Program-made: the position numbers and the translations under genes
Shown here: positions 1 to 21,764 of the stretch, one piece after another
Layout of the letters: every line of letters begins with the position of its first letter
Position numbering within the stretch: position 1 is the first letter of the stretch
Origin: Gammaproteobacteria bacterium
Lineage (GTDB): Bacteria; Pseudomonadota; Gammaproteobacteria; UWMA-0217
Assembly (NCBI GenBank): GCA_026981985.1
Contig: JALSHZ010000036.1
Location: 11,113 to 75,112 of the forward strand
Reading direction: 5' to 3'
Length of the DNA stretch: 64,000 nt
The notes under the pieces: generated by a model
The model's database searches: none
Seen by the model: the letters and a program-made list of their open reading frames with translations, nothing else
Told to the model about the DNA's origin: nothing

Positions 1-1520
1 TTTTTCGGATCGTCGTCGCTGACCTTATTGCCTTTGTCATCGAGCAGGTTGCCTTCGCGATCACGCTTGAAAATGGCGCGGAAATTCCAGCCGTGGCCGT
101 GATAGTCAGCGAACTGGGTATCCTTGAGTTTGGGATTCAACTCTGAAACCCGTTTGAGAAATTCCACATCACCCCATTTTCCGCGTGCGGCGGCCGACTC
201 GGGGTTGCGGTCATTGATTGCCCGCTCCTCCTCGGCCGTCGGGTATTTCTGTTTTTCCGGCCACATGAACGGCGCATCAGACTCGTAGTCCCACATGGTG
301 TAGCCGAGATAGGTATTGAGAAACATGTTCGGCTGGTGCATGTGGCAGACCATGCACTGACTGGTCGGAATCGCGCGGGTGAACTGGTGCGACAGTGGAT
401 GGCCGGACTCATCCTTGCTGATGGTCGGATCATTGGTTTGTGTCTTGCCTTCATGCCCGAATTTGGCGTAATGCCCGGAATGCTTGGGATCGCGATCGTT
501 CGCGTAGACCACATGACAGGAAGCACAGCCCGACTGGCGATAATCCCCCGGCTGGTCGTTGGTGCCCATAAACCAGAGCAAGGGGTCATTCAGCCGCGTC
601 TTGGTGATATTGATCAACGGCACTGAAATCCGCCCACCGGTCCCCGGCCCGCGATTCGATTGACGAAAATCGGGCCGCCCTGGTTCTTCGATCCGCTGCA
701 ACTGACCGAGCGCATTGGGCAGGCCGGTTTCCGGAAACAGATTGCCGATGTTACGACCACCACGTTCGAAGACACGGAAAATATCGCCGGGCTTGACCGT
801 TTCCCAGGCCGGCAGCGGGTAGAGCTTTTCCAGAATGCCTTTCTTTTTGGCTTCGGCCTTGAGATCATCCGCAATTTTCGGCCCAGCCAGAATCACGCCA
901 ACGCCGTCGTTACTATAGGCCTCGCCAAGAATGTAATTCTTGAATGGCAAAATACCATTGTTATAGGACGCCCCACCCCAGAGCATGGCGCCTGTTGAAT
1001 GCAAGCTACGCTTCGATGCCTCGATAATCTGCTGATGACAGGCGCCACAAGACTCATCGGCGACCCTGAAATCCGAAGGGTTGATAAAACGAATAAATTC
1101 GCGCGACTCACGATTCAGCAAGGTATAGGTGCGCTCCGGATTGGCACTGGAGGGATAGTGCCAGGACTCGGGATAACGCGGCAGTACATGGGCTTGCCCG
1201 ACTTTACGGCGATACTCAGCGGACTCGGGCTTGAGCGCAGCTGCCGCGAAAATACCGGGATTGCCGCCATGACAGTCGGTGCAGCCCAGCTTGACGGCCG
1301 GGCTCTGGTGCATGTTCTTATTGTCGGTCCCACTGTGGCAGCTCATGCAACCGGCACTCTTGCGCTCGACATCCTGCTGCGACTGACTGGCCGGCGCGGC
1401 GGGGGTGGCACGGTAATCACGCGCCACCGGTTTTTCGGCGCCGGTGCTGGCGGCTAGCGGCATAGCCATCAGCATGGAAATCACGATGAACGTGGCGGGA
1501 AAAATAGTCTTGATCTTCAT
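1..1520 (-). CDS. Multiheme c-type cytochrome, secreted (partial; C-terminus lies beyond the left edge)
   Basis: Absent from the ORF track because it runs off the edge. Manual translation of the minus strand from ATG 1520-1518 gives an uninterrupted 506-codon frame: MKIKTIFPATFIVISMLMAMPLAAS... (signal peptide). It has five CXXCH motifs (CMSCH, CTDCH, CGACH, CASCH, CMVCH). A GGGAGG SD lies 4 nt upstream, 13 nt after the stop of the preceding gene. Confidence 0.85.
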   Translation of the reverse strand, partial: MKIKTIFPATFIVISMLMAMPLAASTGAEKPVARDYRATPAAPASQSQQDVERKSAGCMSCHSGTDNKNMHQSPAVKLGCTDCHGGNPGIFAAAALKPESAEYRRKVGQAHVLPRYPESWHYPSSANPERTYTLLNRESREFIRFINPSDFRVADESCGACHQQIIEASKRSLHSTGAMLWGGASYNNGILPFKNYILGEAYSNDGVGVILAGPKIADDLKAEAKKKGILEKLYPLPAWETVKPGDIFRVFERGGRNIGNLFPETGLPNALGQLQRIEEPGRPDFRQSNRGPGTGGRISVPLINITKTRLNDPLLWFMGTNDQPGDYRQSGCASCHVVYANDRDPKHSGHYAKFGHEGKTQTNDPTISKDESGHPLSHQFTRAIPTSQCMVCHMHQPNMFLNTYLGYTMWDYESDAPFMWPEKQKYPTAEEERAINDRNPESAAARGKWGDVEFLKRVSELNPKLKDTQFADYHGHGWNFRAIFKRDREGNLLDDKGNKVSDDDPK

Positions 1521-1533
1521 GATGCCTCCCGGC

Positions 1534-3423
1534 TCAGTAGGCAAAAATGGCGTTTAACAGGATGTAACTTGGGTCTTCGTCGGGAAACAGCGCTTTGAAA
1601 CCGTCACCGGCAATCAGTTTCGACCACGATGCCCGCAACACGATGTTCTGACTCATCAACGGCCGGTAGATCAGCGCCGCCGAAACATCTACACCGATAT
1701 GCGCGTCGATGCCGCCCTGATTGCGTGCCGTCTCTACCACCGCCGTTTCATCGAAGCGCAGATCGTTGGCATTCAGCGACAGCCGCAGCTCCGGCAACAA
1801 ATCGAAATCAGCACCGACACCGATCAGCACGATGCCGGGATTGATGAAATTGGACTGCCCCTCCTCCTTGCTCGAACGCATGCTGTTGAGTACGCCATTT
1901 CTTCCCGAGAGCGCGACGCGGCCACCCCCGACCAGCGGCACGGCCTGTCGTATCCAGTAGCTGCTGTCAGCACCAGCGAACTGTGGATTTTCAAAAATAG
2001 CATCGAAGCCAGTCGCCTTGTCATCAAAAGGATCTTCGTCGCCACTGCCATAGAGCAACGACAGACGCGGCCTGATCCAGTCGAAATCCATTGACAGTTC
2101 GGCAGCGGCAAAAAAGGCGCTGATGTCGGTATCCGCATCGACAAATACCGATGGCGACTCGCTACCAAAAGCGTAATAGAACGAAGTGGAAAGATTCAGC
2201 CGCCCAAAATGACCATCGCCGCTGTAACCGAGATAGGTCACCTGATATTCGCGCGACTGCTCACGACCCAGCGATGCCGGGCGCTCGATAAAATCATTCT
2301 TATTGTAATAGGGCTCACCGTTCTCGCCATTACGGTTGTGAATAATGCTGAACTGTGAGGTAAACCCTTTGACGAACAGATCCTGCCAGTAGAGATTGGC
2401 GACAAAGACATCATCATCCCGCAGGTCTTCACCCAGATCATTCAGACCACTATTGGTATCCTTTTCGATACGCCGGAACCAGGCCAGATTGTATTGAAAG
2501 ATGTTGTTGTTGCGGGTACCAAACAGGCGCACACCCAACGGGCTGTCCTGAAACAGAAAACCGCGAAAATCCGAAGAAAACGGCTGGATGCCAAAGCGGA
2601 TGCTGTCGAAGTCATAGTGCTCCGACACATTGCGCAGGTGCCGATCATAGAATGCCGCCTGGATGCCAACATGATTATCGTTGCGGGTTTTTCCATTCTC
2701 CGGGTCGGCATTGACGCCCTGTATTTCATCCAGCTCGACGCGGTTATAGTTGAATACCGGAATAAAGCGGAATTCATGATCTGGTGGGCGAAAAACCGTG
2801 TCGCCTTCGTAGTAGACAAATTCGGCGGCGAGGCTCTGCACGAATACGCTCTGATCTGAGCCGCCAAAAATATCGATTTTTCCATTCGCGCCTGCTGAAC
2901 TGCTGCCAACCCCTGTAGGGAGATTCCGCTGCTCGAACACCGTGTCGCTGATCAGGCCAAGATTGAAAAACCAGTCACCATGAATCGGGCGGTCAGCCTT
3001 GAGTACATTACGGTTGTAAGGATCAAGCAGATTTTCCCGATACCCGAGCGTATCGACGATACGCCATCGATCCGGTACCGGCACCGCATCGGGAAAATCG
3101 GCCAGCACCGGGCGCGGAATTGGCGATGCCGGGTTTGGCTTGCGCGGTGGCCGCCCTGCGGTGGCGAAGCCAGCCGACTTTTCCGGCACTGCTTCAGGCA
3201 GGCGACCTGCCGTGGCGCTGCCCGCTTTACGTGGTGTTTTCGGCGCTGCCTGCTCACTGCGTTGCGCCGGGCATTCAATGCGCTTGTACCCTGGACGGCG
3301 ACGCTGGCTAATGCGGCCCTTATCGTCCTGATAACAGGTTTCGGCCACCACCGGCTCGGGCCATGAGGTGGATAGCAGCAGCGCCGTTACCAGGGCTGCC
3401 GTACTGATCGCTGGATAGTTCAT
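1534..3423 (-). CDS. Outer-membrane beta-barrel (porin-like) protein with basic Pro/Ala-rich N-terminal extension
   Basis: ORF 1534..3453 trimmed to ATG 3423 (GAGGAGG SD; signal-like MNYPAISTAALVTALLLSTSWPEPVVA). The body is long and beta-strand-like, ending ...LLNAIFAY; a C-terminal aromatic residue is typical of OM barrels. Exact family not recognised. Confidence 0.7.
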   Translation of the reverse strand: MNYPAISTAALVTALLLSTSWPEPVVAETCYQDDKGRISQRRRPGYKRIECPAQRSEQAAPKTPRKAGSATAGRLPEAVPEKSAGFATAGRPPRKPNPASPIPRPVLADFPDAVPVPDRWRIVDTLGYRENLLDPYNRNVLKADRPIHGDWFFNLGLISDTVFEQRNLPTGVGSSSAGANGKIDIFGGSDQSVFVQSLAAEFVYYEGDTVFRPPDHEFRFIPVFNYNRVELDEIQGVNADPENGKTRNDNHVGIQAAFYDRHLRNVSEHYDFDSIRFGIQPFSSDFRGFLFQDSPLGVRLFGTRNNNIFQYNLAWFRRIEKDTNSGLNDLGEDLRDDDVFVANLYWQDLFVKGFTSQFSIIHNRNGENGEPYYNKNDFIERPASLGREQSREYQVTYLGYSGDGHFGRLNLSTSFYYAFGSESPSVFVDADTDISAFFAAAELSMDFDWIRPRLSLLYGSGDEDPFDDKATGFDAIFENPQFAGADSSYWIRQAVPLVGGGRVALSGRNGVLNSMRSSKEEGQSNFINPGIVLIGVGADFDLLPELRLSLNANDLRFDETAVVETARNQGGIDAHIGVDVSAALIYRPLMSQNIVLRASWSKLIAGDGFKALFPDEDPSYILLNAIFAY

Positions 3424-3433
3424 CTCCGCCTCC

Positions 3434-5452
3434 TCACTTGCCCGCACAGACATTGTCGGCGCTGGAATTCAAAAAAGGCGCTTGCGGACACTGCACGAAA
3501 CGGAGCCGGACACCCTGCGGGGTCAGATTGTCGGCGCGCATTGCAGGCGGCGCGTTGCCAAAAGCACCATTCATTTTCTCGCCCGCGCGATGCACACCGA
3601 GAAACGCAATCATGTCGTCCTGATCGACACCATCACCGGAGACGCCAATCCCGCCCACCAGCTGGTTGCCACGATAGATCGGCACGCTGCCGGGAAAGAT
3701 CTGCAAACCATTGGTAATGGCCGCTGCAGGAACGGCGGCGGTTGCCGTCAGATCATCGGCGAGCGCGATGCCGGCGCAGCCCGTACCGACATCAGGCAAC
3801 GCACCGCCGCTGGCGACATGCAATACATGCTGCAAGATCCCATTGATCGACACGTCCAACTGCAAACCGGTGGAAAACGGACTCCACTGCCCGGCAGGCT
3901 TGCTCAACGGTCCGGCCTGATTGCCATTGATGCCGTCAGGAAAAAACGGCCGCGAGAGATTACCGCCGGCGCGATCGGAAAAGGCTACTGCTCCTGTCGA
4001 GAGTGCGGTCGGATCACCAACAAAATTACGCACAGCCGCCACATAGTCAGCCAGCTTCACGCGTTTGCCGACACTGGTGCCATCGAGATAGGCGGCATCG
4101 GGCAAGGCCTGTAACAGCGCGGCCGCACCAGCCGAGGAGAAAAACGCGGCGGTACGCGCCTTCTGCAACGACACATCAGCACCGAACACCGGGGCATCGC
4201 GGCTGCGCACCATGCCCAGCACCTTGCCCTTGCTGTCCACCACCGAAATCGTCACCCGGGCGGCTGAGTTGAGCGGGCGTCGGATCTGCGCGCGCGCAGT
4301 GTTGGCCACATCGAGCGCGGCGCTCAGAATGGCCTGCACTTCATTGGCCTGGAGTGGCGACGCATCAGTACCTGCCTGAGGCGCAAAACGCGGTGTATTG
4401 GTGGCATCGACGAAGATGAATGCGTTTTGCCCGGGAAACAGCGTGGCATCGGCGCGAACCCCTGAACCGGGCTGACCGAACACGGTTCCGGCCCGAATCG
4501 TGCCAGCAAAATACCCACTGACTGGCACCAGACTCCCAGTGCCCGCCGGCAACGCGGAGAAGGCACCGGCATTGGCCGGGTCACTGCCGAGGTCGGAAAA
4601 GTCGACATCGCTGAAACGCAACACCTTGCCATCGACAGTAATGTGATCAGCTCGTCGATCCACCGGCGCGGCATAGCCGAAACTGGCGGCCAGGGCGATC
4701 AATTCATCGAGGTCACGATCGCTGTCGGTCACATCCGTATCGATGCTGTACTGGCCATCGGCAATGACGCCGACACCACCCACCACGGTTCCCGACTTGT
4801 AGAGCGGGAAGCCACCAGGATCAGCCGACAATCCCAGCGGCGAACGCTGTGGTCCTGGGGCGGCTGCCGCCGTGGTATTGCGCAGTGAAAAATCGGAACA
4901 GGGCAGCTGGGAAAACTGCACGCCAAACAGCGGCCCACCGGGCTGAAAATCCTCACCCGGATTGAAATGCTCCTGCACGATCTGGCTTGCCGTGCGGGTG
5001 CTGAAGGCATTGCCTTCGGACGACAGGTAGGCCCCGGTGACGGCCTTGGCTATCGCCGCCTGATGATCGAGATTGAACGGTGCCGAAGGCAGCGGCAGCT
5101 TGATGCCTTCGAAACCGGCATCGACCAGCGGCTGACCGTTATTGCTGCGGGTGACGATCTCGACCACCCGTTCGGCAGCACTGCCCATGCGATAGACCGC
5201 CAGCACATTGCCAACCCGATCGACCACCGCAATCGTCGCCTTGACGCCACGGCTGCGCGCTTCCTGCACGCCTTGCACCAGCACCTTTTCCACATCAGCC
5301 ACAGTCAGTCGCGTGGTGGTGCTCGCACAACTGCCATCACAGCCGGTGGTTGCATCCGTGCCGCTGGACTGAAAAACCGAATCGCCGCCGGAACAGCCCG
5401 CCAAGCCCAGCAAGCCCCCCACGAAGGCGATGGTAAACAATAGTTTTTTCAT
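3434..5452 (-). CDS. Lipoprotein with two GlcG/HbpS-like (DUF336) putative heme/tetrapyrrole-binding modules
   Basis: ORF 3434..5665 trimmed to ATG 5452 (AAGGAG SD). N-terminus MKKLLFTIAFVGGLLGLAGC carries a lipobox. DUF336-like signatures: VKATIAVVDRVGNVLAVYRM, RVTISVVDSKGKVLGMVRSRDAP and the C-terminal IYRGNQLVGGIGVSGDGVDQDD. Confidence 0.75.
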   Translation of the reverse strand: MKKLLFTIAFVGGLLGLAGCSGGDSVFQSSGTDATTGCDGSCASTTTRLTVADVEKVLVQGVQEARSRGVKATIAVVDRVGNVLAVYRMGSAAERVVEIVTRSNNGQPLVDAGFEGIKLPLPSAPFNLDHQAAIAKAVTGAYLSSEGNAFSTRTASQIVQEHFNPGEDFQPGGPLFGVQFSQLPCSDFSLRNTTAAAAPGPQRSPLGLSADPGGFPLYKSGTVVGGVGVIADGQYSIDTDVTDSDRDLDELIALAASFGYAAPVDRRADHITVDGKVLRFSDVDFSDLGSDPANAGAFSALPAGTGSLVPVSGYFAGTIRAGTVFGQPGSGVRADATLFPGQNAFIFVDATNTPRFAPQAGTDASPLQANEVQAILSAALDVANTARAQIRRPLNSAARVTISVVDSKGKVLGMVRSRDAPVFGADVSLQKARTAAFFSSAGAAALLQALPDAAYLDGTSVGKRVKLADYVAAVRNFVGDPTALSTGAVAFSDRAGGNLSRPFFPDGINGNQAGPLSKPAGQWSPFSTGLQLDVSINGILQHVLHVASGGALPDVGTGCAGIALADDLTATAAVPAAAITNGLQIFPGSVPIYRGNQLVGGIGVSGDGVDQDDMIAFLGVHRAGEKMNGAFGNAPPAMRADNLTPQGVRLRFVQCPQAPFLNSSADNVCAGK

Positions 5453-5525
5453 GGCGGACTCCTTCATGATTGTTTTCCACTGACTGTCGCCAATGGAGGC
5501 ACCGCGTTGTCGGACCTGGCCGTGT

Positions 5526-7262
5526 TCATTCGTCGACCTCTTGCTGCGCTGGGTCCATCGCGTCTTCCGACGGCTGTGGGTGGTAAGCGTGGCAGCCAAT
5601 ACACTGGAGCGGCACGATGCCACGCTCGCGTTCGCTGCGATGACAGCGGACACAGCGATCCACATCCGGAATCAACAACGTGCTGCTTTCTTTCGACTGG
5701 GCTGCGTCGTGACAGGAGGCACAGGCCTCGCTGCCGCTCAGGGTTTTATCGTCATCGGGGTATTTCACGCTGCGATGACTGCCGTGGTCGAAACGGGCCG
5801 ACGGAAAATAGTCGCTGCTGAGTTTCACCGGCTTCACCGCATAACGCTGGTACAGCTCCCGCTCGGGGTAAACGCTGATTTCATGGCAGCTGACACAGCC
5901 CTGGCGGGTAAATTGGTCGTCGGTATCACGCGCGGCTTTTTGCAACGCACACTGATAGGTCGCCTCGCTGCAAACCTCGACACGTTTTTTCTTGCGATCG
6001 GGACGGCGGCGTTTCTTGACCGTGGCGGGTTTGTAATCCGGATCGCTCAAGCGCTTTAGATAGTGACCTTCGAGCGTGAAAATCACCTCCTCTGGCTTGC
6101 CATGAGGAAGCTGCCGCTCAGGAAAAGCGGGGTCGAAGGTCAGCTCGTGACAAGCGGCGCAATGACGCTCCATCGTGATCGGCGCGAAATGTTCGCGGTC
6201 ACTGTTGAGCTGATGACAGCTGTTGCATTCCAGCGGAGCATCGTCCTGTTTGCTGGTCACCTTCTCCGGGTCGAGATGCACGTCGTGGGGGAACTTTAAA
6301 TTCGACTGCTCGCTGGCACCGTCTATCTTGCTGAGCACGGTTTTCCATGCGGCTGCGCCACTGTCGTCGACCCCGTCCGGTTGCAGCAGATGTGCGCGAA
6401 ACGTGGGATGTGCCTTGTCAGCAAACCCCGTGACGATATCCAGCTCCGGCGCAATCTCCATTTTCTGTTCATCGGCGTGGCAGTCGGTGCAGAGTGAATC
6501 GGCACGGATGATCAGCGTGGGGCGCGGCTCGTTGTGCTCACGGTGACAACTGGCGCAGCGAATCTGGTTGTCGGGATGTTTTTCCAGCAGCGTATGGGAG
6601 AGATGATCGGCAATCTCTTCATGGCATTCCTGGCAGGCTTTATCACGCACCTGGACGAACATCTGCTGATGGCAACTGCGGCAGTCGTCACCCGCCGCCA
6701 GCTCATGCACCGGATGCAACGGGCCACTGATCCACAAGGCATCACTGGGCAGCCAGGCGGGTGGTTCCGCGCCGGCATCACGCCAGTAGACCGAGGCCAG
6801 CGGCAACAGCAGGGAAACCAGCAGGGTGATCGCCGCCAACGTCCAACTGAGGGCGCGCATCGAGATGCCACTACCGGCAAGTGACGTAACAAAGGCGTTT
6901 TCGAAATTGGCTGCATCGCTATTGCTGGCACGGTGCAGTTCCAGCGCCACATCGAACCCGGCCGGCGCGGGGATGACCGTCAGACGATTGCCGTCCAGCT
7001 CGATCACATCGCCATGCTGCAATTCGGCCGTGCGGCAGGGCTGACCATTGACTTGCACGCTCGTCTTGCCGACGCCGCGCAGCATGAGCTTGCCGTTACG
7101 CCATGTCAGCTGTAGCGCATTGCCCTTGATGTCACGACCGAGCAGCTGAATCTGCTGATCTGGCGCACTGCCGATATCGAGCCGTTCGCATTGCAATTCC
7201 GTGTCCTGGAATTCTTCGAATCCCGAGCCGGTATCCAGTTGTTCGCGTATCAGTACATTCAT
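5526..7262 (-). CDS. FHA-like domain / single TM / decaheme c-type cytochrome
   Basis: 578-aa ORF. The N-terminal ~100 aa are FHA-like (LDIGSAPDQQIQLLGRDIKGNALQL...VQVNGQPC...LQHGDVIELDGNRLTV). One TM follows (LSWTLAAITLLVSLLLPLASVYW), then ten CXXCH motifs (CRSCH, CQECH, CASCH, CTDCH, CNSCH, CAACH, CVSCH, CASCH, CVRCH, CIGCH). The start lies 4 nt after the upstream stop. Confidence 0.85.
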   Translation of the reverse strand: MNVLIREQLDTGSGFEEFQDTELQCERLDIGSAPDQQIQLLGRDIKGNALQLTWRNGKLMLRGVGKTSVQVNGQPCRTAELQHGDVIELDGNRLTVIPAPAGFDVALELHRASNSDAANFENAFVTSLAGSGISMRALSWTLAAITLLVSLLLPLASVYWRDAGAEPPAWLPSDALWISGPLHPVHELAAGDDCRSCHQQMFVQVRDKACQECHEEIADHLSHTLLEKHPDNQIRCASCHREHNEPRPTLIIRADSLCTDCHADEQKMEIAPELDIVTGFADKAHPTFRAHLLQPDGVDDSGAAAWKTVLSKIDGASEQSNLKFPHDVHLDPEKVTSKQDDAPLECNSCHQLNSDREHFAPITMERHCAACHELTFDPAFPERQLPHGKPEEVIFTLEGHYLKRLSDPDYKPATVKKRRRPDRKKKRVEVCSEATYQCALQKAARDTDDQFTRQGCVSCHEISVYPERELYQRYAVKPVKLSSDYFPSARFDHGSHRSVKYPDDDKTLSGSEACASCHDAAQSKESSTLLIPDVDRCVRCHRSERERGIVPLQCIGCHAYHPQPSEDAMDPAQQEVDE

Positions 7263-7266
7263 GCCG

Positions 7267-8136
7267 TCACCAGTAGATAAACGTGGTGACGATATGCACG
7301 ATCAGCGCAACAATGAGCGCAATGGTCATCGGCACATGCACATAGAGCCACACTCGCAGCCAGCCCTGCAACGCAATGTCGCGCCGCAGTTGGCGCAGCA
7401 GCGACTGCCGTCGCACCAGTATTGCGAGCAAATCCTGCAGGTTACGCGCTTCGCTGCGCTTGGCTGCGCGCGGAATCCGCGCCGCAACAAAATCGACCAG
7501 AGGCTGCTGATCGGCATTGGGCAGCAGCGTCGCTGCTGCCTCGCCGCTGCCAGCCTGCATAAACCGCGAACCATCCCGCTGCAACAGCTGGGCACCCATG
7601 CCGCCACCGAGCATCGTGCGCTCGACGCCACTCTTGACTGCCAGGCCAACAGCCGGTGAGCAACGTGCTGCCAGACGTCGCGCTTCGCCGTCCATGTCAT
7701 AGAGTTCGGCGAACAATCCGGCACGGGCTTCCCCGGCGCGGTTGCGCGCCAGTAGTTGCGGCTGCGTCAAATATTGGTAGAGCCCGTAAAAGCCGCTGAA
7801 AATCACGCCGCACATCAGCACATAAGAGAGCGTGTGAACATTCCAGCCAAATTGCAGCGCGCAATGCAGCGTCGCCAGCAGCAACACGGCCGTACCGAGG
7901 TAGATATGGGCGGAAGTCCAGCCCTGCACCGTGCCAGAGCCACCGGCGTAGCGCCGTTTGCGAATACCGAGCCAGGCCAGCCAGACGATCAGCAACGCTG
8001 CGACCGTGCCAAGCACATACCCTTGCCAGGTACCGCCATTGGGAGGCTGCACGCCGCCCTGGCTGAAATAGAGTACGAAACTGCTCGCCACCAGCAGCAA
8101 CGCAACCCACAGATAGCGCCCACCGGCGTAGCGCAT
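7267..8136 (-). CDS. Polytopic inner-membrane protein, possible b-type cytochrome / ferric-reductase-like subunit
   Basis: ORF 7267..8223 trimmed to ATG 8136; the start is uncertain because the upstream part overlaps the previous CDS. Several hydrophobic helices carry intramembrane His residues (SAHIYLG, LHCALQFG, WLYVHVPMTIALIVALIVHIV). Confidence 0.6.
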   Translation of the reverse strand: MRYAGGRYLWVALLLVASSFVLYFSQGGVQPPNGGTWQGYVLGTVAALLIVWLAWLGIRKRRYAGGSGTVQGWTSAHIYLGTAVLLLATLHCALQFGWNVHTLSYVLMCGVIFSGFYGLYQYLTQPQLLARNRAGEARAGLFAELYDMDGEARRLAARCSPAVGLAVKSGVERTMLGGGMGAQLLQRDGSRFMQAGSGEAAATLLPNADQQPLVDFVAARIPRAAKRSEARNLQDLLAILVRRQSLLRQLRRDIALQGWLRVWLYVHVPMTIALIVALIVHIVTTFIYW

Positions 8137-8150
8137 GACATTGCGATAGA

Positions 8151-10691
8151 TCACTGCATACGCCCCTCCACCAGCGCGACAAATTCCGCTGGACCGATGC
8201 GTTTGGCCGCACCGGTTGGACAAGCCCGCACACAGGCGGGGCCGCCCTTGACGTTGACGCAGGCGTCACATTTGACCGCTTTTTTCCCCCGTGCCTTGGC
8301 TTCAGCGTCGGGCTCGAAACCCTGCCGTTCCCCAGGCCCACTGCCACGACCGAACAGCAGCCACGACAACAAGCCCGGCTTTTTCGGCGCCGCATAGCTC
8401 AGCCGAATGACATCGTAGGGACAGTTTTTTTCGCAGTTGCCGCAGCCGATACAGGCATCGGTGATGAACACCTCACCACTGGCCGCGCGCAGAATCGCAT
8501 TGGGCGGACAATCCTTCATGCAATGAGGCTGTTCGCAATGACGGCAGGCGCTGGGAATATGCACATCGACTGCCGTCGGGCCAGACTTTCGATCGAGCCG
8601 GCACAGGCCTTCATGGGTTTCGGCACAGGCTTTTTCGCAATTGTCACAACCCACGCAAAGGCGCTCGTCGATCACCAGCACATTGGTCGCTTCACCAAGG
8701 CCATTGCGCATCAGAAACCGGAATAACCCGGCCGCATCGGGGCGCACGCTCATGCGCGCCTTGTCGATGACCTGCCGGCTGACATCCTCCTGCAACTGGC
8801 GAATGCGCGCATCGTTGCGCTGCACCAGTTCGAGGAATTCCGCGCGTTCCACTTCGATCACTTCGGCGGCCACCGTCGCTGTGGCAGTTTCGCGGCGAAT
8901 GCCATCCCCCATCAGCGCCATCTGGCCAAACAGCTTGCCCGAACGCAGCTGCGACACCAGCACGTCCTGGCCATCCACCTGGCGACTCAGGGTGATCGCA
9001 CCGGAGCGCACGATGAACAGGCTGGCGGCTTCATCCCCTTCATCATAAATCGTTGCACCGGCATCGAACTGGCGCGTACCGACGCGGGCACCGAGGTCGC
9101 GCAATTCACGCAGCGGTGCAAACGGCGCGAAATGCCGCTGCAACTCACGCACGACAAAAATCCAGTCGATGCCGCTGCGGACCTCTTCATTGGAATTCAT
9201 CAGTTTGAGCATGGTGCGCCGGGGTGTCTCGACGACGATGCAATTACTACCGGCGATGGCCTTTTCACCCCGGGGCCGCCCGGACAACAGACTGGACTCG
9301 CCAAAAAACTCACCACGCCCCAGCGTGGTGCGCAACTGCTGCCCTTCCACCTCGTTTTCCAGTACGACCTCGCCATCGACAATGGTGAAAAAAGAGGTGC
9401 CAAATTCACCGCGATCGTAGATGACATCGCCCTCGGCGATGACTTTCGTCATACGCGGATTGCGTCCCTCGGCGCGCAGTTTGCTGGCCAGCGTGTTGAT
9501 TTTGCGACGCGCATCATCGAGCACCTGATCACTGGGATAGCCGGCAATAATCGTGCTCTCAATAATCAGCTCGCGAAACGCCAGCGAGTTGAGTTTGCGG
9601 AACATCGGGATCAACGCCTGGAAGCGTTCTAGCAATTCATCCACTTCCCTGTCATAGGGCAGGCCGAGCAGCTGATGCTGCAACAAGGGATAGTCGGCGG
9701 GCTTGATAAAATTTCCATTGATAAATTCGACCACATCGTAGCCCTGATTCATCGCCTGCTTGATCAATGGATAACCGGCCAGCGAGCCAACGATATAGAC
9801 GCCGGGCACATTGCTTTCGTAGTGACGCGACAGCTCGGGAATGGCATCACGACGTTCGCTGGGAAACTGAATGCCGATCGACTCGACGAAGCGCCGCGGC
9901 GGGATCGCACCAAGACGCGCCACGATACGGTCGCAATCCATCGTGATATCCCCTTCGGGGGTTTTCATCACGACATGCAGCGGCTTGCCTTCACTGTTTT
10001 GCGTCACCGACTTGATGCTGGTGGAGTAAAAACAATTCAGCCGATGACCGTCATCGCTGATGGCCTTGAGGATCAGGTTGAGATTGCCCTCTTTGGCACG
10101 GCTGAATTCATCACGACGATTGAGAATGAAAACATCGTTCTGCTCGCTGAGCGCCAGCGCGTTTTCAATGGCCGAATCACCGGCGCCGACAACGAGTATG
10201 ATCTCATCATGGAAGGCCTTCGGATCTTCAAGGTTATATTGCACCCTGTCGAGACGCTCCCCGTCGACACCCAGCATGCGGGGATTGCCTTCCAGACCGA
10301 TGCCGAGGATGATATTTTCCGCGCTGATGTTCTCGCCATTGACCAGCGCAATATCGAACGCACCTTTGCTGCCGGTAATCGCCGACACCTCGGCCTGATA
10401 ACGAATATTGATGCCCAGTTCTTCGCAGCGCCCTTGCCACCAGCCAAGAATTTCTTCGCGCCGCCCCTCCTCGAAACGCACATCGCTACGCAAGTCGAGA
10501 AAGCCAGGCTCGGCCATGACTTTTTTTCCTTTCTGGTAACGCTGAATGGTCTTGGCAACCACCTCGAAGCCTTCAAGAAGCACATAGCTGGGCGTGGAGA
10601 CCTGGTTTTGCTGATCGAGAATTTGCGCACGCGCCGCTGCACTCAGCCCGGCCGGGCCGGCACCGATAATGGCAATCTGAAAATCAGCCAT
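8151..10691 (-). CDS. FAD/NAD(P)-dependent oxidoreductase fused to two cyclic-nucleotide-binding domains and a four-cluster 4Fe-4S ferredoxin domain
   Basis: 846 aa. N-terminus IAIIGAGPAGLSAA and a second Rossmann motif ILVVGAGDSAIENAL. Two cNMP-binding signatures (LGRGEFFGESSLLSGRPRGEKAIA; LRSGKLFGQMALMGDGIRRETATA). C-terminal Cys groups: CVGCDNCEKAC, CRHCEQPHCMKDCP, CIGCGNCEKNCP, CDAC...CVRACP. Confidence 0.85.
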   Translation of the reverse strand: MADFQIAIIGAGPAGLSAAARAQILDQQNQVSTPSYVLLEGFEVVAKTIQRYQKGKKVMAEPGFLDLRSDVRFEEGRREEILGWWQGRCEELGINIRYQAEVSAITGSKGAFDIALVNGENISAENIILGIGLEGNPRMLGVDGERLDRVQYNLEDPKAFHDEIILVVGAGDSAIENALALSEQNDVFILNRRDEFSRAKEGNLNLILKAISDDGHRLNCFYSTSIKSVTQNSEGKPLHVVMKTPEGDITMDCDRIVARLGAIPPRRFVESIGIQFPSERRDAIPELSRHYESNVPGVYIVGSLAGYPLIKQAMNQGYDVVEFINGNFIKPADYPLLQHQLLGLPYDREVDELLERFQALIPMFRKLNSLAFRELIIESTIIAGYPSDQVLDDARRKINTLASKLRAEGRNPRMTKVIAEGDVIYDRGEFGTSFFTIVDGEVVLENEVEGQQLRTTLGRGEFFGESSLLSGRPRGEKAIAGSNCIVVETPRRTMLKLMNSNEEVRSGIDWIFVVRELQRHFAPFAPLRELRDLGARVGTRQFDAGATIYDEGDEAASLFIVRSGAITLSRQVDGQDVLVSQLRSGKLFGQMALMGDGIRRETATATVAAEVIEVERAEFLELVQRNDARIRQLQEDVSRQVIDKARMSVRPDAAGLFRFLMRNGLGEATNVLVIDERLCVGCDNCEKACAETHEGLCRLDRKSGPTAVDVHIPSACRHCEQPHCMKDCPPNAILRAASGEVFITDACIGCGNCEKNCPYDVIRLSYAAPKKPGLLSWLLFGRGSGPGERQGFEPDAEAKARGKKAVKCDACVNVKGGPACVRACPTGAAKRIGPAEFVALVEGRMQ

Positions 10692-11102
10692 GCCAGGCAG
10701 CCTTCAGCAAGCAAGGCTGCCTGAGGTTCTCTCGCTGACGCGATGCTACTGCACTGCGCATAAAACCCATGATCCACAGTGAAAAGGCGTCATAACAACG
10801 CCCGCTCGGAAATCGAAAATGCGATGGGTGGTGGCGGTTATTATTATTCACTCTTGTCGACTCTCTGGTCACTGACATCAGCCCCGAGGGACCAGCCATT
10901 TGTTAAACACTATATCTTGGATAGCAAAAAAATAGTGCCTCGATCAGCCATGCCAGCCGATACCGGGAAATAATCCCGGACTCGGTTGACATGGCGCGTT
11001 TCAAAGTCGGCTGATCTATATTCGAGGCAATCGCCCAATGAGAAAAAATGGAGTAACTGCTCAGTTTACCCAATAAGAACACATCAACCGGAGCCAGCCA
11101 CC

Positions 11103-12455
11103 ATGAATGCCGCCACCCATACCGCACTGCATGACTTCATGCAAAAAATAGAAAAACGCAACCCCAATGAGCCGGAATTTCAACAGGCCGTTGCTGAAGT
11201 CGCCACCAGCGTGCTGCCCTATATACAAGACAAGCCCCTCTATCGCGAAGCCCGCATTCTCGAACGGATGACCGAACCCGACAGAGTGATCATGTTTCGC
11301 GTGGTATGGGAAGACGACGATGGCAATGTGCAGATCAACCGCGGCTACCGTGTACAAAACAACAACGCGATCGGTCCCTACAAGGGCGGTCTGCGTTTTC
11401 ACCCCAGCGTCAACCTCAGCGTGTTGAAATTTCTTGCTTTCGAGCAAACCTTCAAGAACTCGCTCACCGGCCTGCCGATGGGCGGCGGCAAGGGCGGCGC
11501 TGATTTCAACCCCAAGGGACGCTCCAACAACGAAGTGATGCGCTTCTGCCAGGCCTATATGACGGAACTCGAACGGCATATCGGCGAAGGCACCGACGTT
11601 CCCGCCGGAGACATCGGTGTCGGCGCACGGGAGATTGGCTATCTGTTTGGCCAGCACAAGCGCCTGTCGAACCAGTTCACCGGCGTCCTGACCGGCAAGG
11701 GGCTGGAGTATGGCGGCAGCCTGGTGCGAACTGAAGCCACCGGCTACGGTGCCGTCTATTTTCTCGAAGACATGCTCAAGCACCGCGGCAAGGACATCGA
11801 AGGCTGCGTTGCGACCATCTCCGGCTCGGGCAATGTTGCTCTCTACGCTGCGGAGAAAGTTGCCCAACTGGGTGGCAAGGCCGTTACGCTGTCGGACTCG
11901 TCGGGCTTTATCCATGATCCGGAAGGCATTGCCGGCGATAAGCTGGCCTGGGTCAAGGCACTGAAAGAGCAGCGCCGGGGCCGTATTTCTGAATATGCGG
12001 AAGAATTCGGCGTCGAATTTTTCCCCGGCGAACGCCCCTGGAAAATACCCTGCGACGTGGCCCTGCCCTGCGCCACCCAGAACGAGCTCAGCGGCAGCGA
12101 CGCGCAAACCCTGGTCGACAACGGCTGCATGGCGGTCTCTGAAGGCGCCAACATGCCCACCGATCAGGAAGGGCTCGATATCTTCGTCAGCAACCACATC
12201 ATGTTTGCCCCCAGCAAGGCCGCCAACGCCGGTGGCGTCGCCGTCTCCGGCCTCGAAATGAGTCAGAACTCAGTCGGCATCTCCTGGGAGGAAGATGAAC
12301 TCGACCGCCGACTGCGAACCATCATGCGCGGCATTCACGAGCAATGCGTCGAATACGGCAGCGGAGACAACGGCTATGTCAACTACCTCAAAGGCGCCAA
12401 TATCGCCGGCTTCAACAAGGTCGCCAACGCCATGCTGGCCTACGGCGTGATGTAA
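11103..12455 (+). CDS. gdhA: NADP-specific glutamate dehydrogenase
   Basis: ORF 10986..12455 trimmed to ATG 11103 (MNAATHTALHDFMQKIEKRNPNEPEFQQAV). Classic GDH motifs are present: GGLRFHPSVN and KNSLTGLPMGGGKGGADF. Confidence 0.95.
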   Translation: MNAATHTALHDFMQKIEKRNPNEPEFQQAVAEVATSVLPYIQDKPLYREARILERMTEPDRVIMFRVVWEDDDGNVQINRGYRVQNNNAIGPYKGGLRFHPSVNLSVLKFLAFEQTFKNSLTGLPMGGGKGGADFNPKGRSNNEVMRFCQAYMTELERHIGEGTDVPAGDIGVGAREIGYLFGQHKRLSNQFTGVLTGKGLEYGGSLVRTEATGYGAVYFLEDMLKHRGKDIEGCVATISGSGNVALYAAEKVAQLGGKAVTLSDSSGFIHDPEGIAGDKLAWVKALKEQRRGRISEYAEEFGVEFFPGERPWKIPCDVALPCATQNELSGSDAQTLVDNGCMAVSEGANMPTDQEGLDIFVSNHIMFAPSKAANAGGVAVSGLEMSQNSVGISWEEDELDRRLRTIMRGIHEQCVEYGSGDNGYVNYLKGANIAGFNKVANAMLAYGVM

Positions 12456-12578
12456 CACCACCCGCTCGCGGCAAGCGAAGCGATTCGCGCGCCGCTTCAC
12501 AGCAGACGGGCAAGTACCACTGTTAAACTCTGGCGCTATCCGCCCGGGGTTCGGGCGCATCATCAAGGATGTGTTGCC

Positions 12579-14009
12579 ATGAAAAAGCTATTGCCTCTCA
12601 TTGTTCTGCTACTGCTCGCAACCTGGGCGGGTGCTACCTGGCTGATCTCCAGCCAGGTGGAACAGAATTTCGACCGCGCCCTCAATCAGTTGAACAGCAA
12701 GCTGGCAGAGGACCTTCCCTTCGTCGAGGTGAAACCAGCCAACTTCCACAAAGGCTTTTTCAAGAGCGAGGCGACATCGCAGCTGACGCTGACTGGTGCG
12801 CAGGATGATGCTGACATGCTGCCGCTGCGGCACGTCATCTACCACGGCCCGGTCATGCTGACGCCGCTGGGCGTCAAAACGGGTAGCACCTATATCGTGA
12901 CGTCAATCGATATGGACATGCTACCCGCCGAGACCCGCGACAAGATCAACGATCTCACGGGTGGCGACACACCGCTGACCATCGGCATGCTGACCGGCAC
13001 CAGCAAGGACTTCGATCTGGACATCGAGGTCGCATCACTGCAACTCGACGATCGACAAAACAGCCAGACCACCATCCGCTTCGAAGGCATGCGTGGCGCA
13101 CTGAAATCCGATCTCCAGGGCAGCTACCTCAAAGGCAAGCTGGCCAATGGCAAGATCAGCATTGCCGATCAAAATGGTCAGCAGGTCGAGATCGCACCGA
13201 CAACCATCCGTTTCGACATCGACGAGATGTACAAGGGCACTGTGCTATCCGGCACTTCCAGCCTGACAACCGCACAACTGCTGATTCGCTCGCCAGCGCT
13301 CGAAACCCGTGCCGAAAACCTGTCTTTTACTTCCGCTACCGCGCAAGCGGGCAACGGCACCACCTCGGCAAGCGCCACGTTCAACACCTCACCGGCTAGC
13401 ATCGAAGTTGCATCGAAAAACATGAGCTTCACCGACGGCGCGATCGGCTTCACGACCCGCTTCGAAGGCATCGATACGTCCGCGCTAAAAAAACTGGTCG
13501 ACGCCGGCGCCGATCTGCACAGCCTGGAAATCGCCGCGATGAAAAAGGGTGAAGTCGAGCCGGAGAAAATCCAGCAGAACCTGGAGACCTATCTGTCAGC
13601 TGTGATCGACCTGCTGAAGCCGGGCCTTGAATCCACCACGCGGCTGGACATCGGCAACCCGCAAGGCAAGGCATGGTTCGATCTTGCCCTGAACTACGCC
13701 GAGACCCGCCCGGTTACCGAACTGGCAACGCTGCGCGACCTGATCGCCGCAATCGATGGCCGACTGGAAATCGTCAGCGACAAGCCGCTGTTGCGTTCAC
13801 TGTCACTCGACGGCCTGGCAGCCATGCCAATCGCAATGGGATTTGCAACAGCCGACAATGACCAAATCCGCAGTGAAGTCACCATCAGTAAAGGGGTACT
13901 CAGCATCAATGGCCAACCAGCGCCATTTCTGGAAATGTTCGGCCCGATTCTCGACGAACCCTCGCCACTGCGCCGCCTGAGGGCCGATACGAGCGGGCAC
14001 TCAGTCTGA
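12579..14009 (+). CDS. YdgA-like (DUF945) periplasmic/membrane-anchored protein
   Basis: 476 aa. N-terminal anchor MKKLLPLIVLLLLATWAGATWLISSQVEQNFDRALNQLN resembles the YdgA family. The rest is a low-complexity beta-rich body. Confidence 0.7.
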   Translation: MKKLLPLIVLLLLATWAGATWLISSQVEQNFDRALNQLNSKLAEDLPFVEVKPANFHKGFFKSEATSQLTLTGAQDDADMLPLRHVIYHGPVMLTPLGVKTGSTYIVTSIDMDMLPAETRDKINDLTGGDTPLTIGMLTGTSKDFDLDIEVASLQLDDRQNSQTTIRFEGMRGALKSDLQGSYLKGKLANGKISIADQNGQQVEIAPTTIRFDIDEMYKGTVLSGTSSLTTAQLLIRSPALETRAENLSFTSATAQAGNGTTSASATFNTSPASIEVASKNMSFTDGAIGFTTRFEGIDTSALKKLVDAGADLHSLEIAAMKKGEVEPEKIQQNLETYLSAVIDLLKPGLESTTRLDIGNPQGKAWFDLALNYAETRPVTELATLRDLIAAIDGRLEIVSDKPLLRSLSLDGLAAMPIAMGFATADNDQIRSEVTISKGVLSINGQPAPFLEMFGPILDEPSPLRRLRADTSGHSV

Positions 14010-14108
14010 GCGACAGCCGGATACCGCACTCACCAGGTGAAAGCACCGGGTTGACATCTCCCCTCCCCGGCCGCATGTTCGACACAGCCCCATCACCAAC
14101 AGGCTGTC

Positions 14109-15173
14109 ATGAGCGCCCTTCGCAAACACCCGCTGTTGCTTTCCCTGCTTCTGCTGCTCGCCATCAATCCTGGAAAAACAACCACCTTCGGTGTTTCCGG
14201 CGCCATCTTCAATACCGTTCGGCCACTGACCATCGACGATGCCGACGCCATCTCGCGGCTGCCCGGCGTCAAAGCGGTGACACCCGTGATCCAGGGCAAT
14301 GCGCAAATCGAAGCCGGCCAGCGCAGTCGGCGCAGCACCGTTCTCGGCGTCAATGGACGACTCGGTGAGGTGTGGCAAATCCACATTGCGATCGGTAGAC
14401 AACTGCCCGATGACAACAGCAGCTCACCACGCGGCTATGCCGTACTGGGTCATAAATTGCGCCAGGAGCTGTTCGCCAACGAAAATCCGCTGGGGCGCAA
14501 GATCCGCATTGCCGGCGAGCATTACCGCGTCATCGGCTCGCTGGAGGCGAAGGGGCAGATTCTCGGTTTCGATCTCGACGATACCGTCTACCTGCCGGCA
14601 GCGCGGGTGTTGTCGATGTTCAACCGCGACAGCCTGATGGAGATCGATGTGCTCTATCATCCGGGGCTCAGCAGCGAGGTGATGGCCGAGCGTATCCGCC
14701 GCTTCCTGATTCAGCGCCACGGCGGCGAGGATTTCACCATCACCACCCAGGACGAGATGCTGAAAGTGCTGGACAGCATTCTCGATGTGCTGACACTGGC
14801 TGTCGCGGCCATCGGCGGTATTTCATTGCTGGTGGGAGCGATCGGCATTTTTACGACCATGACCATCGCGGTCAATGAGCGCATCCCCGAAATCGGACTG
14901 CTCAGGGCACTGGGCGCCACCCGCGCACAGATCCGGAACCTGTTTATCGGCGAGTCAGTGCTGCTGGCGCTGCTCGGCGGCGCACTGGGGCTGGTACTGG
15001 GATTGGGTGGCGCCGAACTGGTGGCGTTACTCTCGCCGATTCCGGCGCAGATATCGTGGTTCTATACCTTGCTGGCGGAGGTGCTGGCGGCCAGCATCGG
15101 CATCCTCTCCGGGGTGTTGCCATCACTGCATGCAGCAGCAATGAACCCGGTCGATGCGTTACGGAGTGAATAG
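14109..15173 (+). CDS. MacB/FtsX-family ABC transporter permease, N-terminally shortened, no adjacent ATPase
   Basis: The C-terminal FtsX domain is clear (LAVAAIGGISLLVGAIGIFTTMTIAVNERIPEIGLLRALGATRAQIRNLF...NPVDALRSE). A MacB-type periplasmic domain is present. The usual N-terminal ~40 aa (TM1 region) appears compressed to MSALRKHPLLLSLLLLLAINPG. Confidence 0.8.
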   Translation: MSALRKHPLLLSLLLLLAINPGKTTTFGVSGAIFNTVRPLTIDDADAISRLPGVKAVTPVIQGNAQIEAGQRSRRSTVLGVNGRLGEVWQIHIAIGRQLPDDNSSSPRGYAVLGHKLRQELFANENPLGRKIRIAGEHYRVIGSLEAKGQILGFDLDDTVYLPAARVLSMFNRDSLMEIDVLYHPGLSSEVMAERIRRFLIQRHGGEDFTITTQDEMLKVLDSILDVLTLAVAAIGGISLLVGAIGIFTTMTIAVNERIPEIGLLRALGATRAQIRNLFIGESVLLALLGGALGLVLGLGGAELVALLSPIPAQISWFYTLLAEVLAASIGILSGVLPSLHAAAMNPVDALRSE

Positions 15174-17476: not shown

Positions 17477-17558
17477 GAGCGATCCCCTGTGCGTTATGAG
17501 TTCCCGCCGCGATTATAAGGGCAAGACAATGCTGGCGCATTGGCTCTGTTCGACACGA

Positions 17559-18059
17559 TCAGTGCGTCGCAATAAAATTTTCCAGCGCCTCTTTGCGAAT
17601 TGGCCCGGGATTGACGGCGACCAACTCGCCTTTCGGGTTGAACAGCCAGTAGGTGGGCGTGCCGCGGAATGGTTCCTCTGCGGCGATCTGGAAGTTCATC
17701 GCCATCAGCCCCAGTTCGGCGATGTAGTTGGGGAAGGTCAGGGGTTGTCGCTGAATCGCCTTTTCGATGGCGGCCTTGCTTTCCATGCCGTTGATGACGA
17801 CTCCGACGACCTCTGCATCCTTGTCCTTGTGCGCATCATGGAAGGCATTGATATCGGGCTTGTTGCGCTCGCAGATCGGGCAATTGAGCCCCCAGAACAT
17901 CACCAGCACCCATTTTCCTTTGCCGACATGCTTGTCGAGTCCAGCCGGTTGCCCGCTGAAGTCGCGCAAGCCAAGATCCGGTACTGGTTGCTCCTTGGCC
18001 GGCAGTTGCGTGGACACAGCCAACAAGCAAATAACGATCAGAAGTCTCAGTGCTTTCAT
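17559..18059 (-). CDS. TlpA/redoxin-family periplasmic thiol:disulfide oxidoreductase
   Basis: 166 aa with a signal peptide (MKALRLLIVICLLAVS) and the thioredoxin-fold active site FWGLNCPICE. Confidence 0.85.
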   Translation of the reverse strand: MKALRLLIVICLLAVSTQLPAKEQPVPDLGLRDFSGQPAGLDKHVGKGKWVLVMFWGLNCPICERNKPDINAFHDAHKDKDAEVVGVVINGMESKAAIEKAIQRQPLTFPNYIAELGLMAMNFQIAAEEPFRGTPTYWLFNPKGELVAVNPGPIRKEALENFIATH

Positions 18060-18133
18060 TGTTTACTCTCAAATCCATCGAAGAACCCTATTCTACGGGA
18101 TTGTCGGCGATACGGACTCAATGGGTATGATGC

Positions 18134-18224
18134 GAGGGAGGTTGTGGGGGTTTGGCGAATGAATTCGCCCCTACAGCTGCGAAGGAGGTTGCGGTGGTTT
18201 GGCGAATGAATTCGCCCCTACAGC
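18134..18224. repeat. Two tandem REP-like units (47-bp period)
   Basis: GAGGGAGGTTGTGGGGGTTTGGCGAATGAATTCGCCCCTACAGC (18134-18177) and GAAGGAGGTTGCGGTGGTTTGGCGAATGAATTCGCCCCTACAGC (18181-18224). Each holds the palindrome GGCGAAT-GA-ATTCGCC followed by CCTAC. Confidence 0.8.
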
Positions 18225-21559: not shown

Positions 21560-21764
21560 AAGCCATTGTTATCCAAAACGGCAAGGGCGGAATGGGGACC
21601 AGGTTCCATTCTGCTCGTCACCATCCGTTGATCTCAAAAGCTACACCTTTGGACCCAATAAACTGTGACTACGGTCACTGTAAACAGATGTAAAGAGGAC
21701 AATCATCTGAATGAAAGAAAAGCGATTTTTTCACAGTTGACAATCTCATAACAGGAGGCAGCTC

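Follow-up and report, generated by a model that had tools for sequence, protein, structure and literature searches.

The DNA examined here is a stretch of 64,000 nucleotides (nt) from a Gammaproteobacteria bacterium (UWMA-0217; assembly GCA_026981985.1, contig JALSHZ010000036.1, positions 11,113-75,112 of the forward strand), which we refer to as the window. At its left edge lies the beginning of a cluster of redox genes, designated A to I, whose composition, distribution and likely role are the subject of this work. An earlier inspection of the letters and open reading frames (ORFs) alone, hereafter the sequence-only reading, had described the part visible in the window as an operon of at least six genes that could link cytoplasmic redox chemistry to the outer membrane and that carries sensory domains.

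Organization and distribution of the operon

The ORFs and their Pfam matches confirmed six co-directional minus-strand coding sequences with the expected domains at positions 1-10691 (A to F, Table 1), and direct reading confirmed the junctions and Shine-Dalgarno sequences that had been quoted for them (TGA-cggc-ATG between B and C, with GGGAGG and GAGGAGG ahead of F and E, respectively). The count of at least six genes becomes nine in all once the sequence left of position 1 is recovered. This sequence was found on an 83.8 kb contig (ENA ERZ27262642 k141_328096, locus L002) that matches C and E exactly; it adds the rest of F, then G, H and I, so that nine co-directional genes are present with the remainder in the ~5.4 kb beyond the left edge of the window.

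Table 1. Genes of the operon and the intergenic region upstream of it. Coordinates refer to the window or, where indicated, to locus L002; aa, amino acids; TM, transmembrane helix.
Feature	Coordinates	Strand or position	Product or content
A	8151-10691	minus	846 aa, predicted cytoplasmic FAD/NAD(P)H + cyclic nucleotide (cNMP) + iron-sulphur (FeS) protein
B	7267-8154 (called start; further ATG at 8136)	minus	295 aa, inner-membrane, putative di-haem b protein
C	5526-7262	minus	578 aa, FHA-like + TM + decahaem
D	3434-5452	minus	672 aa, lipoprotein, two GlcG/HbpS-like modules
E	1534-3423	minus	629 aa, predicted outer-membrane beta-barrel
F	window <1-1520; L002 11904-15629	minus in window	1241 aa, first 506 aa inside window
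G	L002 15622-16920	left of window	432 aa, c554-like
H	L002 16923-17744	left of window	273 aa, PP2C phosphatase
I	L002 17754-18797	left of window	347 aa, FHA-FHA
Divergent intergenic region 5' of A	10692-10985		contains sigma-70-like site 10872-10843, minus

The genes are closely packed, with spacings along A-I of -4, 4, 73, 10, 13, -8, 2 and 9 nt, the first of these being a 4-nt overlap between the stop of A and the start of B. By consensus match alone, the 16.7 kb operon holds one sigma-70-like site, located 5' of A, compared with 5.9 expected from shuffled sequences. Given this lone promoter-like site and the overlapping or tightly spaced genes, the arrangement fits a single transcription unit. 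A convergent gene closes the unit after I, and no flanking gene is common to more than 14 of the 80 loci compared below, for which reason we take A-I as its extent. The numbers of CXXCH motifs in the three multihaem proteins (10, 10 and 4) are far above chance (shuffle means of 0.01-0.05), and the operon as a whole would bind ~27 haems. An Rfam search of the window gave no match. The neighbours in the window belong to a housekeeping chromosome (gyrA, aroA, rpsA, lapB, hemN, rng, yhdP, deaD and phoD), which together with a uniform GC content rules out an origin as a mobile island.

To describe the distribution of the operon, we scanned one genome per GTDB species with a profile of C and obtained at least 515 places with a confirmed C relative. 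The best 80 of these at least 515 loci were compared with all nine operon proteins by tblastn. A-B-C-D-E-F-G are collinear in ~52 of the 80 species-level loci, usually with H and often with I, and short contigs account for most of the loci without the full gene order. The gene families therefore co-occur in synteny, and the objection that their order is not conserved in relatives fails. The hosts include Steroidobacteraceae, Woeseiaceae, Halieaceae, other Pseudomonadales, Wenzhouxiangella, Granulosicoccaceae and one metagenome-assembled genome (MAG) labelled Myxococcales. Cultured carriers are Steroidobacter agaridevorans, S. flavus, S. gossypii, Peristeroidobacter, Parahaliea, Pseudohalioglobus lutimaris and Haliea sp.; in S. 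flavus all nine genes are present with unrelated genes on both sides. Two Gammaproteobacteria MAGs (L012 11756-17372 and L024 11789-17490) carry an insert of ~5.6 kb between C and D, which includes a ~505-aa secreted protein encoded just upstream of D.

Mean identity to the window protein is highest for F (71%), followed by A and E (62% each), D (60%), B (56%), G (50%), H (41%) and C, the least conserved (40%). Alignments of 50-77 orthologues show no or hardly any variation at the 16 FeS cysteines of A, the 24 CXXCH motifs or the four membrane histidines of B. An exhaustive search for C relatives at E<=1e-30 gave 529 clusters at 50% identity; the 150 among the matches listed are nearly all full length, with the N-terminal FHA-like domain included. 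Homologues of E number more than 7800.

The inner-membrane core and the distal module

Domains were assigned with Pfam and NCBIfam hidden Markov models (HMMs), and the structures of E and B were predicted with AlphaFold2 (AF2) and compared with the PDB by Foldseek. The domain calls that had been made for A-D by eye (FHA, cNMP-binding, Pyr_redox, Fer4 and HbpS-like) were all matched by profile HMMs. In A, residues 1-330 form a TrxR/YpdA-like FAD/NAD(P)H domain (Pyr_redox_3/2) without the redox CxxC, residues ~415-640 hold two cNMP_binding domains (Pfam PF00027, E 2.7e-35), and residues 670-835 form a HycB/NrfC-like ferredoxin domain whose four Cys4 motifs correspond to four [4Fe-4S] clusters. 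The cNMP domains are thus placed between the flavin and FeS modules. A also matches PF13247 (35.6 bits, cutoff 26.2), and its sequence matches in the PDB include HycB, HDCR HycB3, PKA-R/PKG and YpdA/Bdr; the ferredoxin domain further resembles HDCR HycB4, ArrB and NrfC, the cNMP domains are of the PKA-R/CRP type, and the flavin domain also resembles thioredoxin reductases. Across 67 orthologues, the 16 cluster cysteines, both GxGxxG/A motifs and both phosphate-binding-cassette arginines are at least 90% conserved, as are the cassettes themselves (FFGE...GRPR and G.M.LMG..RR); A may bind cyclic nucleotide. Neither a signal peptide nor a TM helix was found in A, which is therefore placed in the cytoplasm.

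The AF2 model of B (predicted local distance difference test score, pLDDT, 79.8) has five TM helices and a cytoplasmic helical insert of ~130 aa. The motifs WTSAH-x13-H in TM3, SGFYG in TM4 and WLYVH-x13-H in TM5 were read directly, and His83, His97, His273 and His287 are invariant. By the positive-inside rule, His83 and His273 would lie near the cytoplasm and His97 and His287 near the periplasm, an arrangement that suggests two b haems stacked across the membrane. B itself has a weak Pfam match to cytochrome b561, and its homologues give weak matches to Ni_hydr_CYTB (31 of 32, best E 1.2e-6), DUF4405 (14 of 32) and Ferric_reduct (4 of 32, best E 0.006), all of which are di-haem b families. 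Foldseek found no PDB match to the model at E<0.6, and a NOX/MsrQ fold is therefore not claimed for B.

C combines an FHA domain (PF00498, 27.0 bits, cutoff 20.7), one TM helix at residues 140-158, Cytochrom_c3_2 and Paired_CXXCH_1 domains and ten CXXCH motifs, all ten of which are invariant among orthologues; its profile matches HmcA and FHA domains in the PDB. The topology predicted from these features is that of a cytoplasmic FHA-like head and a periplasmic decahaem domain held by a one-helix anchor.

The remaining redox components are predicted to lie beyond the inner membrane. D has a lipobox (LAGC, Cys20) followed by Ser at +2, from which it is probably sorted to the outer membrane. Its HbpS-like domain (PF03928, 84.7 bits, cutoff 25) is matched in three stretches, an internal duplication is evident (repeat E 8e-8), and its profile matches EfgA/GlcG, the PduO C-terminal domain, NahX and extracellular/HbpS-type haem binders in the PDB. 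D is the only lipoprotein of the operon and contains no haem c motif. G has a Cytochrome_C554 domain with four CXXCH and one CX4CH, all of them invariant among orthologues, and only a weak PDB match to c554. F has ten CXXCH within residues 58-784 (five of them in the part visible in the window), all invariant, and ends in an LVIVD beta-propeller; F and G carry ordinary Sec signals without a lipobox. With the highest conservation in the operon, F fits an enzyme or an obligate partner in a complex better than a surface cytochrome that evolves fast. Neither F nor E has a PDB relative by sequence or profile search.

For E, the AF2 model is a barrel of ~18 strands (mean pLDDT 62.5, strands ~80) that ends in the C-terminal residues FAY. 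Its best structural matches are AlgE (E 3.5e-16, TM-score 0.61 on the target) and then the 18-strand OprD/Occ channels, which share its strand number and long loops; no MtrB-type barrel appeared near the top of the Foldseek list, and the MtrB/PioB model TIGR03509 was not matched. Unlike AlgE and OprD, E has no family HMM match (no Pfam family in any of 38 homologues, PF13372 and OprD included), it carries an N-terminal extension of ~120 aa, and its context is one of redox proteins rather than of polysaccharide export or nutrient uptake; one UniRef entry labels an E homologue 'Alginate export domain-containing'. The extension (~100-120 aa, residues 28-130) is Pro-rich, disordered in the model, where its confidence is low, and predicted to be periplasmic. 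It starts with a conserved motif in which the cysteines C30 and C51 are at least 92% conserved, and these may form a periplasmic disulfide loop for partner binding.

The sequence-only reading had proposed that the operon could carry electrons across the outer membrane; as far as a medium-confidence, 18-strand AlgE/OprD-like model allows, E instead resembles an ordinary substrate porin. From that model, the lack of a haem c motif in D and the plain Sec signals of F and G, we favour E as a channel or anchor for a periplasm-facing or membrane-associated redox enzyme rather than as a cytochrome sheath. A true porin-cytochrome conduit, in which E surrounds or adjoins a redox protein (part of F, or D with non-covalent haem) and electrons are passed, outside the cell, to insoluble Fe(III)/Mn(IV), humics or electrodes, seems rather unlikely to us. 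It retains some weight because the model of E reaches medium confidence and lacks the long conserved loops. Those loops could dock proteins, and several features of the operon are those of a conduit: as in MtrCAB, PioAB/MtoAB and Geobacter Pcc/Ext, a barrel gene is clustered with decahaems and a lipoprotein, and its position, flanked by the lipoprotein gene on one side and multihaem genes on the other, is that seen in the Geobacter Pcc/Ext clusters; F shows a weak, borderline match to MtrC/MtrF domain II/IV (31.5 bits, cutoff 30) together with its LVIVD propeller, a type typical of surface proteins; the family of D has haem-binding members; one locus (L071) is from a biocathode MAG; and the related PCC4 and ptd clusters, discussed below, were both proposed as extracellular electron transfer complexes.

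Weighing more heavily, the lumen of an ~18-strand AlgE/OprD-like barrel is too narrow for a multihaem domain, MtrB having 26 strands, and neither MtrA/DmsE- nor MtrB/PioB-family members are present in the operon, the DmsE/MtrA-family model TIGR03508 scoring 41 bits on C (cutoff 192). Neither F nor G is a lipoprotein, and the conservation of F is unusually high for a surface cytochrome. The input also differs from that of MtrCAB and Pcc, being the cytoplasmic flavo-FeS protein A with attendant regulatory domains and not a quinol dehydrogenase (CymA/ImcH/Cbc). Finally, the hosts are mostly aerobic heterotrophs, some of which have a separate MtrCAB according to two reports (PMC8805035, PMC12175321).

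Relation to known electron-transfer systems

The suggestion that the operon represents a distinct, undescribed architecture had to be given up, as the design of cNMP-FeS protein, di-haem protein, decahaem and porin has already been described, in 2017 as PCC4 and in 2024 as ptd. PCC4 (He et al. 2017, Front Microbiol 8:1584, PMC5566968) consists of a porin, 4-, 5- and 10-haem cytochromes and an inner-membrane protein (IMP) that is conserved, and its marine subgroup II adds an FeS gene of pfam13247 directly upstream of the IMP gene. The IMP conserved in PCC3 and PCC4 has WX3HX13H twice and SGXXG, and was compared by He et al. with the ferric-reductase/NOX di-haem domain (PMC5566968). The cluster ptdABCDEFG (bioRxiv 10.1101/2023.11.21.568154, 2024) is transcribed in Alphaproteobacteria UBA11136 of oxygen-deficient zones, and its authors call its function completely unknown. 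It comprises a pentahaem protein with a beta-sandwich (PtdA, NrfA-family), a porin (PtdB), an FAD/NAD(P) oxidoreductase (PtdC), a tetrahaem (PtdD), a cNMP-binding 4Fe-4S protein (PtdE), a ferric-reductase-like membrane protein (PtdF) and a periplasmic decahaem (PtdG) (10.1101/2023.11.21.568154). Both accounts are at the genome or transcript level (PMC5566968; 10.1101/2023.11.21.568154), and our comparison used the published descriptions, with locus L060 standing in for ptd/PCC4 sequences.

The resemblance to PCC4 is close in the inner-membrane core. Here, too, a pfam13247 FeS gene (A) is found directly upstream of a ~300-aa, 5-TM IMP (B) with WX3HX13H in TM3 and TM5 and SGXXG in TM4, accompanied by decahaem and tetrahaem cytochromes and a porin, and both occur in marine Gammaproteobacteria. 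In contrast, PCC4 has 4-, 5- and 10-haem proteins and no extracellular multihaem, whereas the operon here encodes proteins of 10, 10 and 4-5 haems: the pentahaem is replaced by the decahaem-LVIVD protein F, and the double GlcG/HbpS lipoprotein is added. The FHA, PP2C and cNMP features present here are not mentioned in the PCC4 paper (PMC5566968). With ptd the operon shares cNMP 4Fe-4S, FAD/NAD(P), decahaem, tetrahaem and porin genes and a membrane-protein gene, the product of which is ferric-reductase-like in ptd. It differs in that the PtdC- and PtdE-like parts are fused in A, with two cNMP domains and four clusters, in that D-E-F replaces PtdA and PtdB (equivalents of the pentahaem PtdA and the porin PtdB being absent from the operon), in gene order, and in the inclusion of PP2C and FHA-FHA genes in the unit.

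How the two kinds of cluster are related is illustrated by L060 (positions 1741-14841), from a Pseudomonadales MAG, in which genes for a tetrahaem, an NrfA/c552-like pentahaem and a porin precede A, B, C, G, H and I orthologues (identities of 57% for A, 49% for B, 37% for C and 39% for G, with two G paralogues) while D-E-F is absent. E is unrelated to the L060 porin (hhalign probability 0.3%), and F shares with the L060 pentahaem a single haem-motif stretch (hhalign probability 50%, 37 columns) and is otherwise unrelated to it. This orthologous core of L060, combined with a pentahaem and an unrelated porin where D-E-F would stand, leads us to view the PCC4/ptd family as modular, with a conserved A-B-C-G-H-I core and exchangeable distal parts. 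The D-E-F version dominates the Gammaproteobacteria sampled. Judged by its component families, the operon is a gammaproteobacterial D-E-F variant of the uncharacterized PCC4/ptd family, and relative to the PCC4 and ptd descriptions three things appear to be new: the fusion that makes up A, the D-E-F module and the genes for phospho-signalling.

A literature search found no description of the operon in work on Woeseiaceae, Halieaceae or Steroidobacteraceae, and no work on PCC4 or ptd later than the 2024 preprint. The sole paper found to join LVIVD with multihaem proteins concerns the Tenderiales uet cluster, which is a different system.

Direction of electron flow, regulatory input and neighbouring genes

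Taken together, these components suggest a regulated electron-export chain that starts at cytoplasmic NAD(P)H and leads to the periplasm and outer membrane, a reading that we put forward tentatively and to which we would give a little less than an even chance. In this chain, A would oxidize NAD(P)H at its TrxR-like flavin domain and pass electrons to its four [4Fe-4S] clusters; B would move them over the inner membrane on two b haems, from the His83/His273 pair on the cytoplasmic side to the His97/His287 pair on the periplasmic side; and the membrane-anchored decahaem C would take them from B. The soluble c554-like G would then shuttle electrons to the decahaem-propeller protein F as the terminal redox partner or enzyme; F would work alongside the lipoprotein D on the inner side of the outer membrane. 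The AlgE-like E would more probably admit or release a small or linear substrate, or anchor D and F, than sheathe a cytochrome. The cofactor sites in this scheme come from the sequence, while we infer the order of the components and the G-to-F step. Of the route from cytoplasm through periplasm to outer membrane that had been proposed at the outset, a plausible redox chain from flavin and FeS through di-haem to multihaem proteins is kept, and a barrel-sheathed crossing of the outer membrane is not favoured.

Two points favour the outward direction: A, a pyridine-nucleotide enzyme, is coupled to B in translation, and only donors far below -320 mV could push electrons inward to NAD(P)+ against the membrane potential. 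An outward flow, as in NOX or Fre-MsrQ, would skip the quinone pool and run down the membrane potential, and such costs could explain the heavy regulation. The parallel with NOX and Fre-MsrQ would extend to the passage of electrons from cytoplasmic NAD(P)H and flavin to two bis-His b haems, with His pairs 13 residues apart on two helices, and to delivery outward independently of the quinone pool; it differs in the FeS wire placed here between flavin and haem, and in an acceptor that is a multihaem chain rather than O2, Fe(III) or MsrP. Several points weigh against electron export as we draw it. B has no significant PDB fold match to NOX, MsrQ or cytochrome b561, its homologues match Ferric_reduct (PF01794) in only the four cases given above, and it may have a quinone site. 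The canonical phosphothreonine (pThr)-binding Arg and Ser are absent from C, whose family consensus reads GS...VAPxHA instead of GR...SRxHA; GS and AP thus stand in place of the pThr-binding GR and SR, and the head of C probably has a degenerate FHA fold of the YscD-like kind. Also counting against export are the surface-type propeller of F and the E model, which is of medium confidence and lacks the long conserved loops.

The reverse direction was proposed for PCC4 by He et al.; applied to this operon, F and G would oxidize Fe(II), Mn(II), reduced sulphur (extracellular or periplasmic) or a cathode, and electrons would pass through C and B to quinone. PCC4 was found in Zetaproteobacteria, Hyphomicrobium and drinking-water filter MAGs linked to Fe/Mn oxidation, and B-type proteins were proposed to be quinone-active cytochromes b (PMC5566968). 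G is c554-like, and the c554 of nitrifiers takes electrons from an oxidizing enzyme. Uptake of this kind would leave A without a role, though A is translationally coupled to B and equally conserved, and with such donors an inward flow continuing to NAD(P)+ is implausible on thermodynamic grounds. Most hosts, such as Steroidobacter and Halieaceae, are moreover not known to be lithotrophs, and we regard electron uptake as improbable.

Under the export reading, flux would be gated in the cytoplasm by the two cNMP domains between the flavin and FeS modules of A, with a further input from Ser/Thr phospho-signalling through the PP2C phosphatase H, the FHA-FHA protein I, the FHA-like head of C and, in some genomes, kinases encoded nearby. 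The expectation of sensory inputs on the cytoplasmic side was borne out, as H and I add to the cNMP and FHA-like domains that had been seen in the window. Both H, the PP2C phosphatase, and I are anchored by a C-terminal TM, and the two FHA domains of I are canonical (125.8 bits; GR, SRNHA and NGT). Genes for Hanks-type Ser/Thr kinases stand beside the cluster in ~10 of the 80 loci (L084, L012, L022, L024, L027, L036, L074, L076 and L080 among them); in L084 they are found on both sides (407-2443 and 20645-21857), one being fused to CsgG/LpoB/PEGA domains. No Hanks kinase motif was found in the window or in L002.

Adjoining this FHA- and PP2C-rich operon, and convergent with its end, is a gene for an FHA-SulP-STAS protein (694 aa; L002 18831-20915, minus; ~5.4-7.5 kb left of the window), in which a pThr-reader domain is joined to an anion transporter. 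By tblastn it gave short partial matches (10-15% of the query) in 3 of the 80 loci.

The density of signalling domains (two cNMP, three to four FHA and one PP2C, with kinases beside some loci) is unusual enough that the whole might be a redox- or stress-sensing device, in which the haem proteins and the HbpS-like D read the redox state of the envelope, the FHA-like domain of C, the PP2C and the FHA-FHA protein relay it, and A serves as a cNMP-responsive redox sensor; in Streptomyces, HbpS is an accessory of a redox-sensing two-component system. We consider this very improbable, since ~27 haems, four FeS clusters and a decahaem protein of 1241 aa would be a heavy outlay if the purpose were sensing, the operon has no conserved output domain (DNA-binding, kinase or cyclase), and the FeS domain of A is of the electron-wire type, like HycB and NrfC.

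Returning to electron export, a more specific version, possible though doubtful in our estimation, would make A-B-C a NOX analogue with an FeS wire, that is, a quinone-independent valve gated by cyclic nucleotide and pThr and serving interchangeable terminal modules. D-E-F, the module used here where ptd/PCC4 has a pentahaem and a porin, would then be an outer-membrane redox enzyme of a previously unknown type, common in aerobic heterotrophs of soils and sediments, and its substrate would be an external one, for example metal oxides, humics, an oxyanion or O2 (from which extracellular superoxide would form). If NAD(P)H electrons are indeed exported past the quinone pool under second-messenger control, this would constitute a new bioenergetic route and a candidate agent of so far unexplained processes in the environment, for instance metal or humic reduction by aerobes or extracellular reactive-oxygen production. 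The families concerned are abundant, with at least 515 species-level genomes that have a C relative and thousands of metagenomic homologues, and the cluster is found in the core chromosomes of Steroidobacteraceae, Woeseiaceae and Halieaceae, groups regarded as plain aerobic heterotrophs and dominant in many soils and in many marine sediments. Under the export reading, the orphan PCC4 and ptd clusters of iron-oxidizer genomes and oxygen-deficient-zone transcriptomes would in addition acquire a function, or at least a model organism for tests, and the cultured carriers make genetics and biochemistry feasible.

Several neighbouring genes deserve mention in their own right. Autotransporter beta-domain proteins (PF03797), most of ~490 aa and one of 1415 aa, adjoin the cluster on either side in at least 16 unrelated loci (L002 21653-21890; L060 14900-19147; L084 18908-20371; L054 1672-3321, minus; and 12 further loci), and could be lineage-variable accessories, for example in surface display. 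Within the window, two plus-strand ORFs of ~470 aa each (21765-23180 and 23460-24857) and one of 270 aa (17397-18209) have no Pfam match at E<=1e-5. A 246-aa ORF (28523-29263, minus) matches YscK (PF06578, E 6e-17), a sorting-platform component of type III secretion systems, of which no other genes were seen among its scanned neighbours. At 29748-32407 (plus), the gene for a GEVED-domain protein (515 aa) runs 4 nt into the beginning of the gene for an OmpA-family protein (371 aa) with an N-terminal beta-barrel, and the two look like a small envelope operon.

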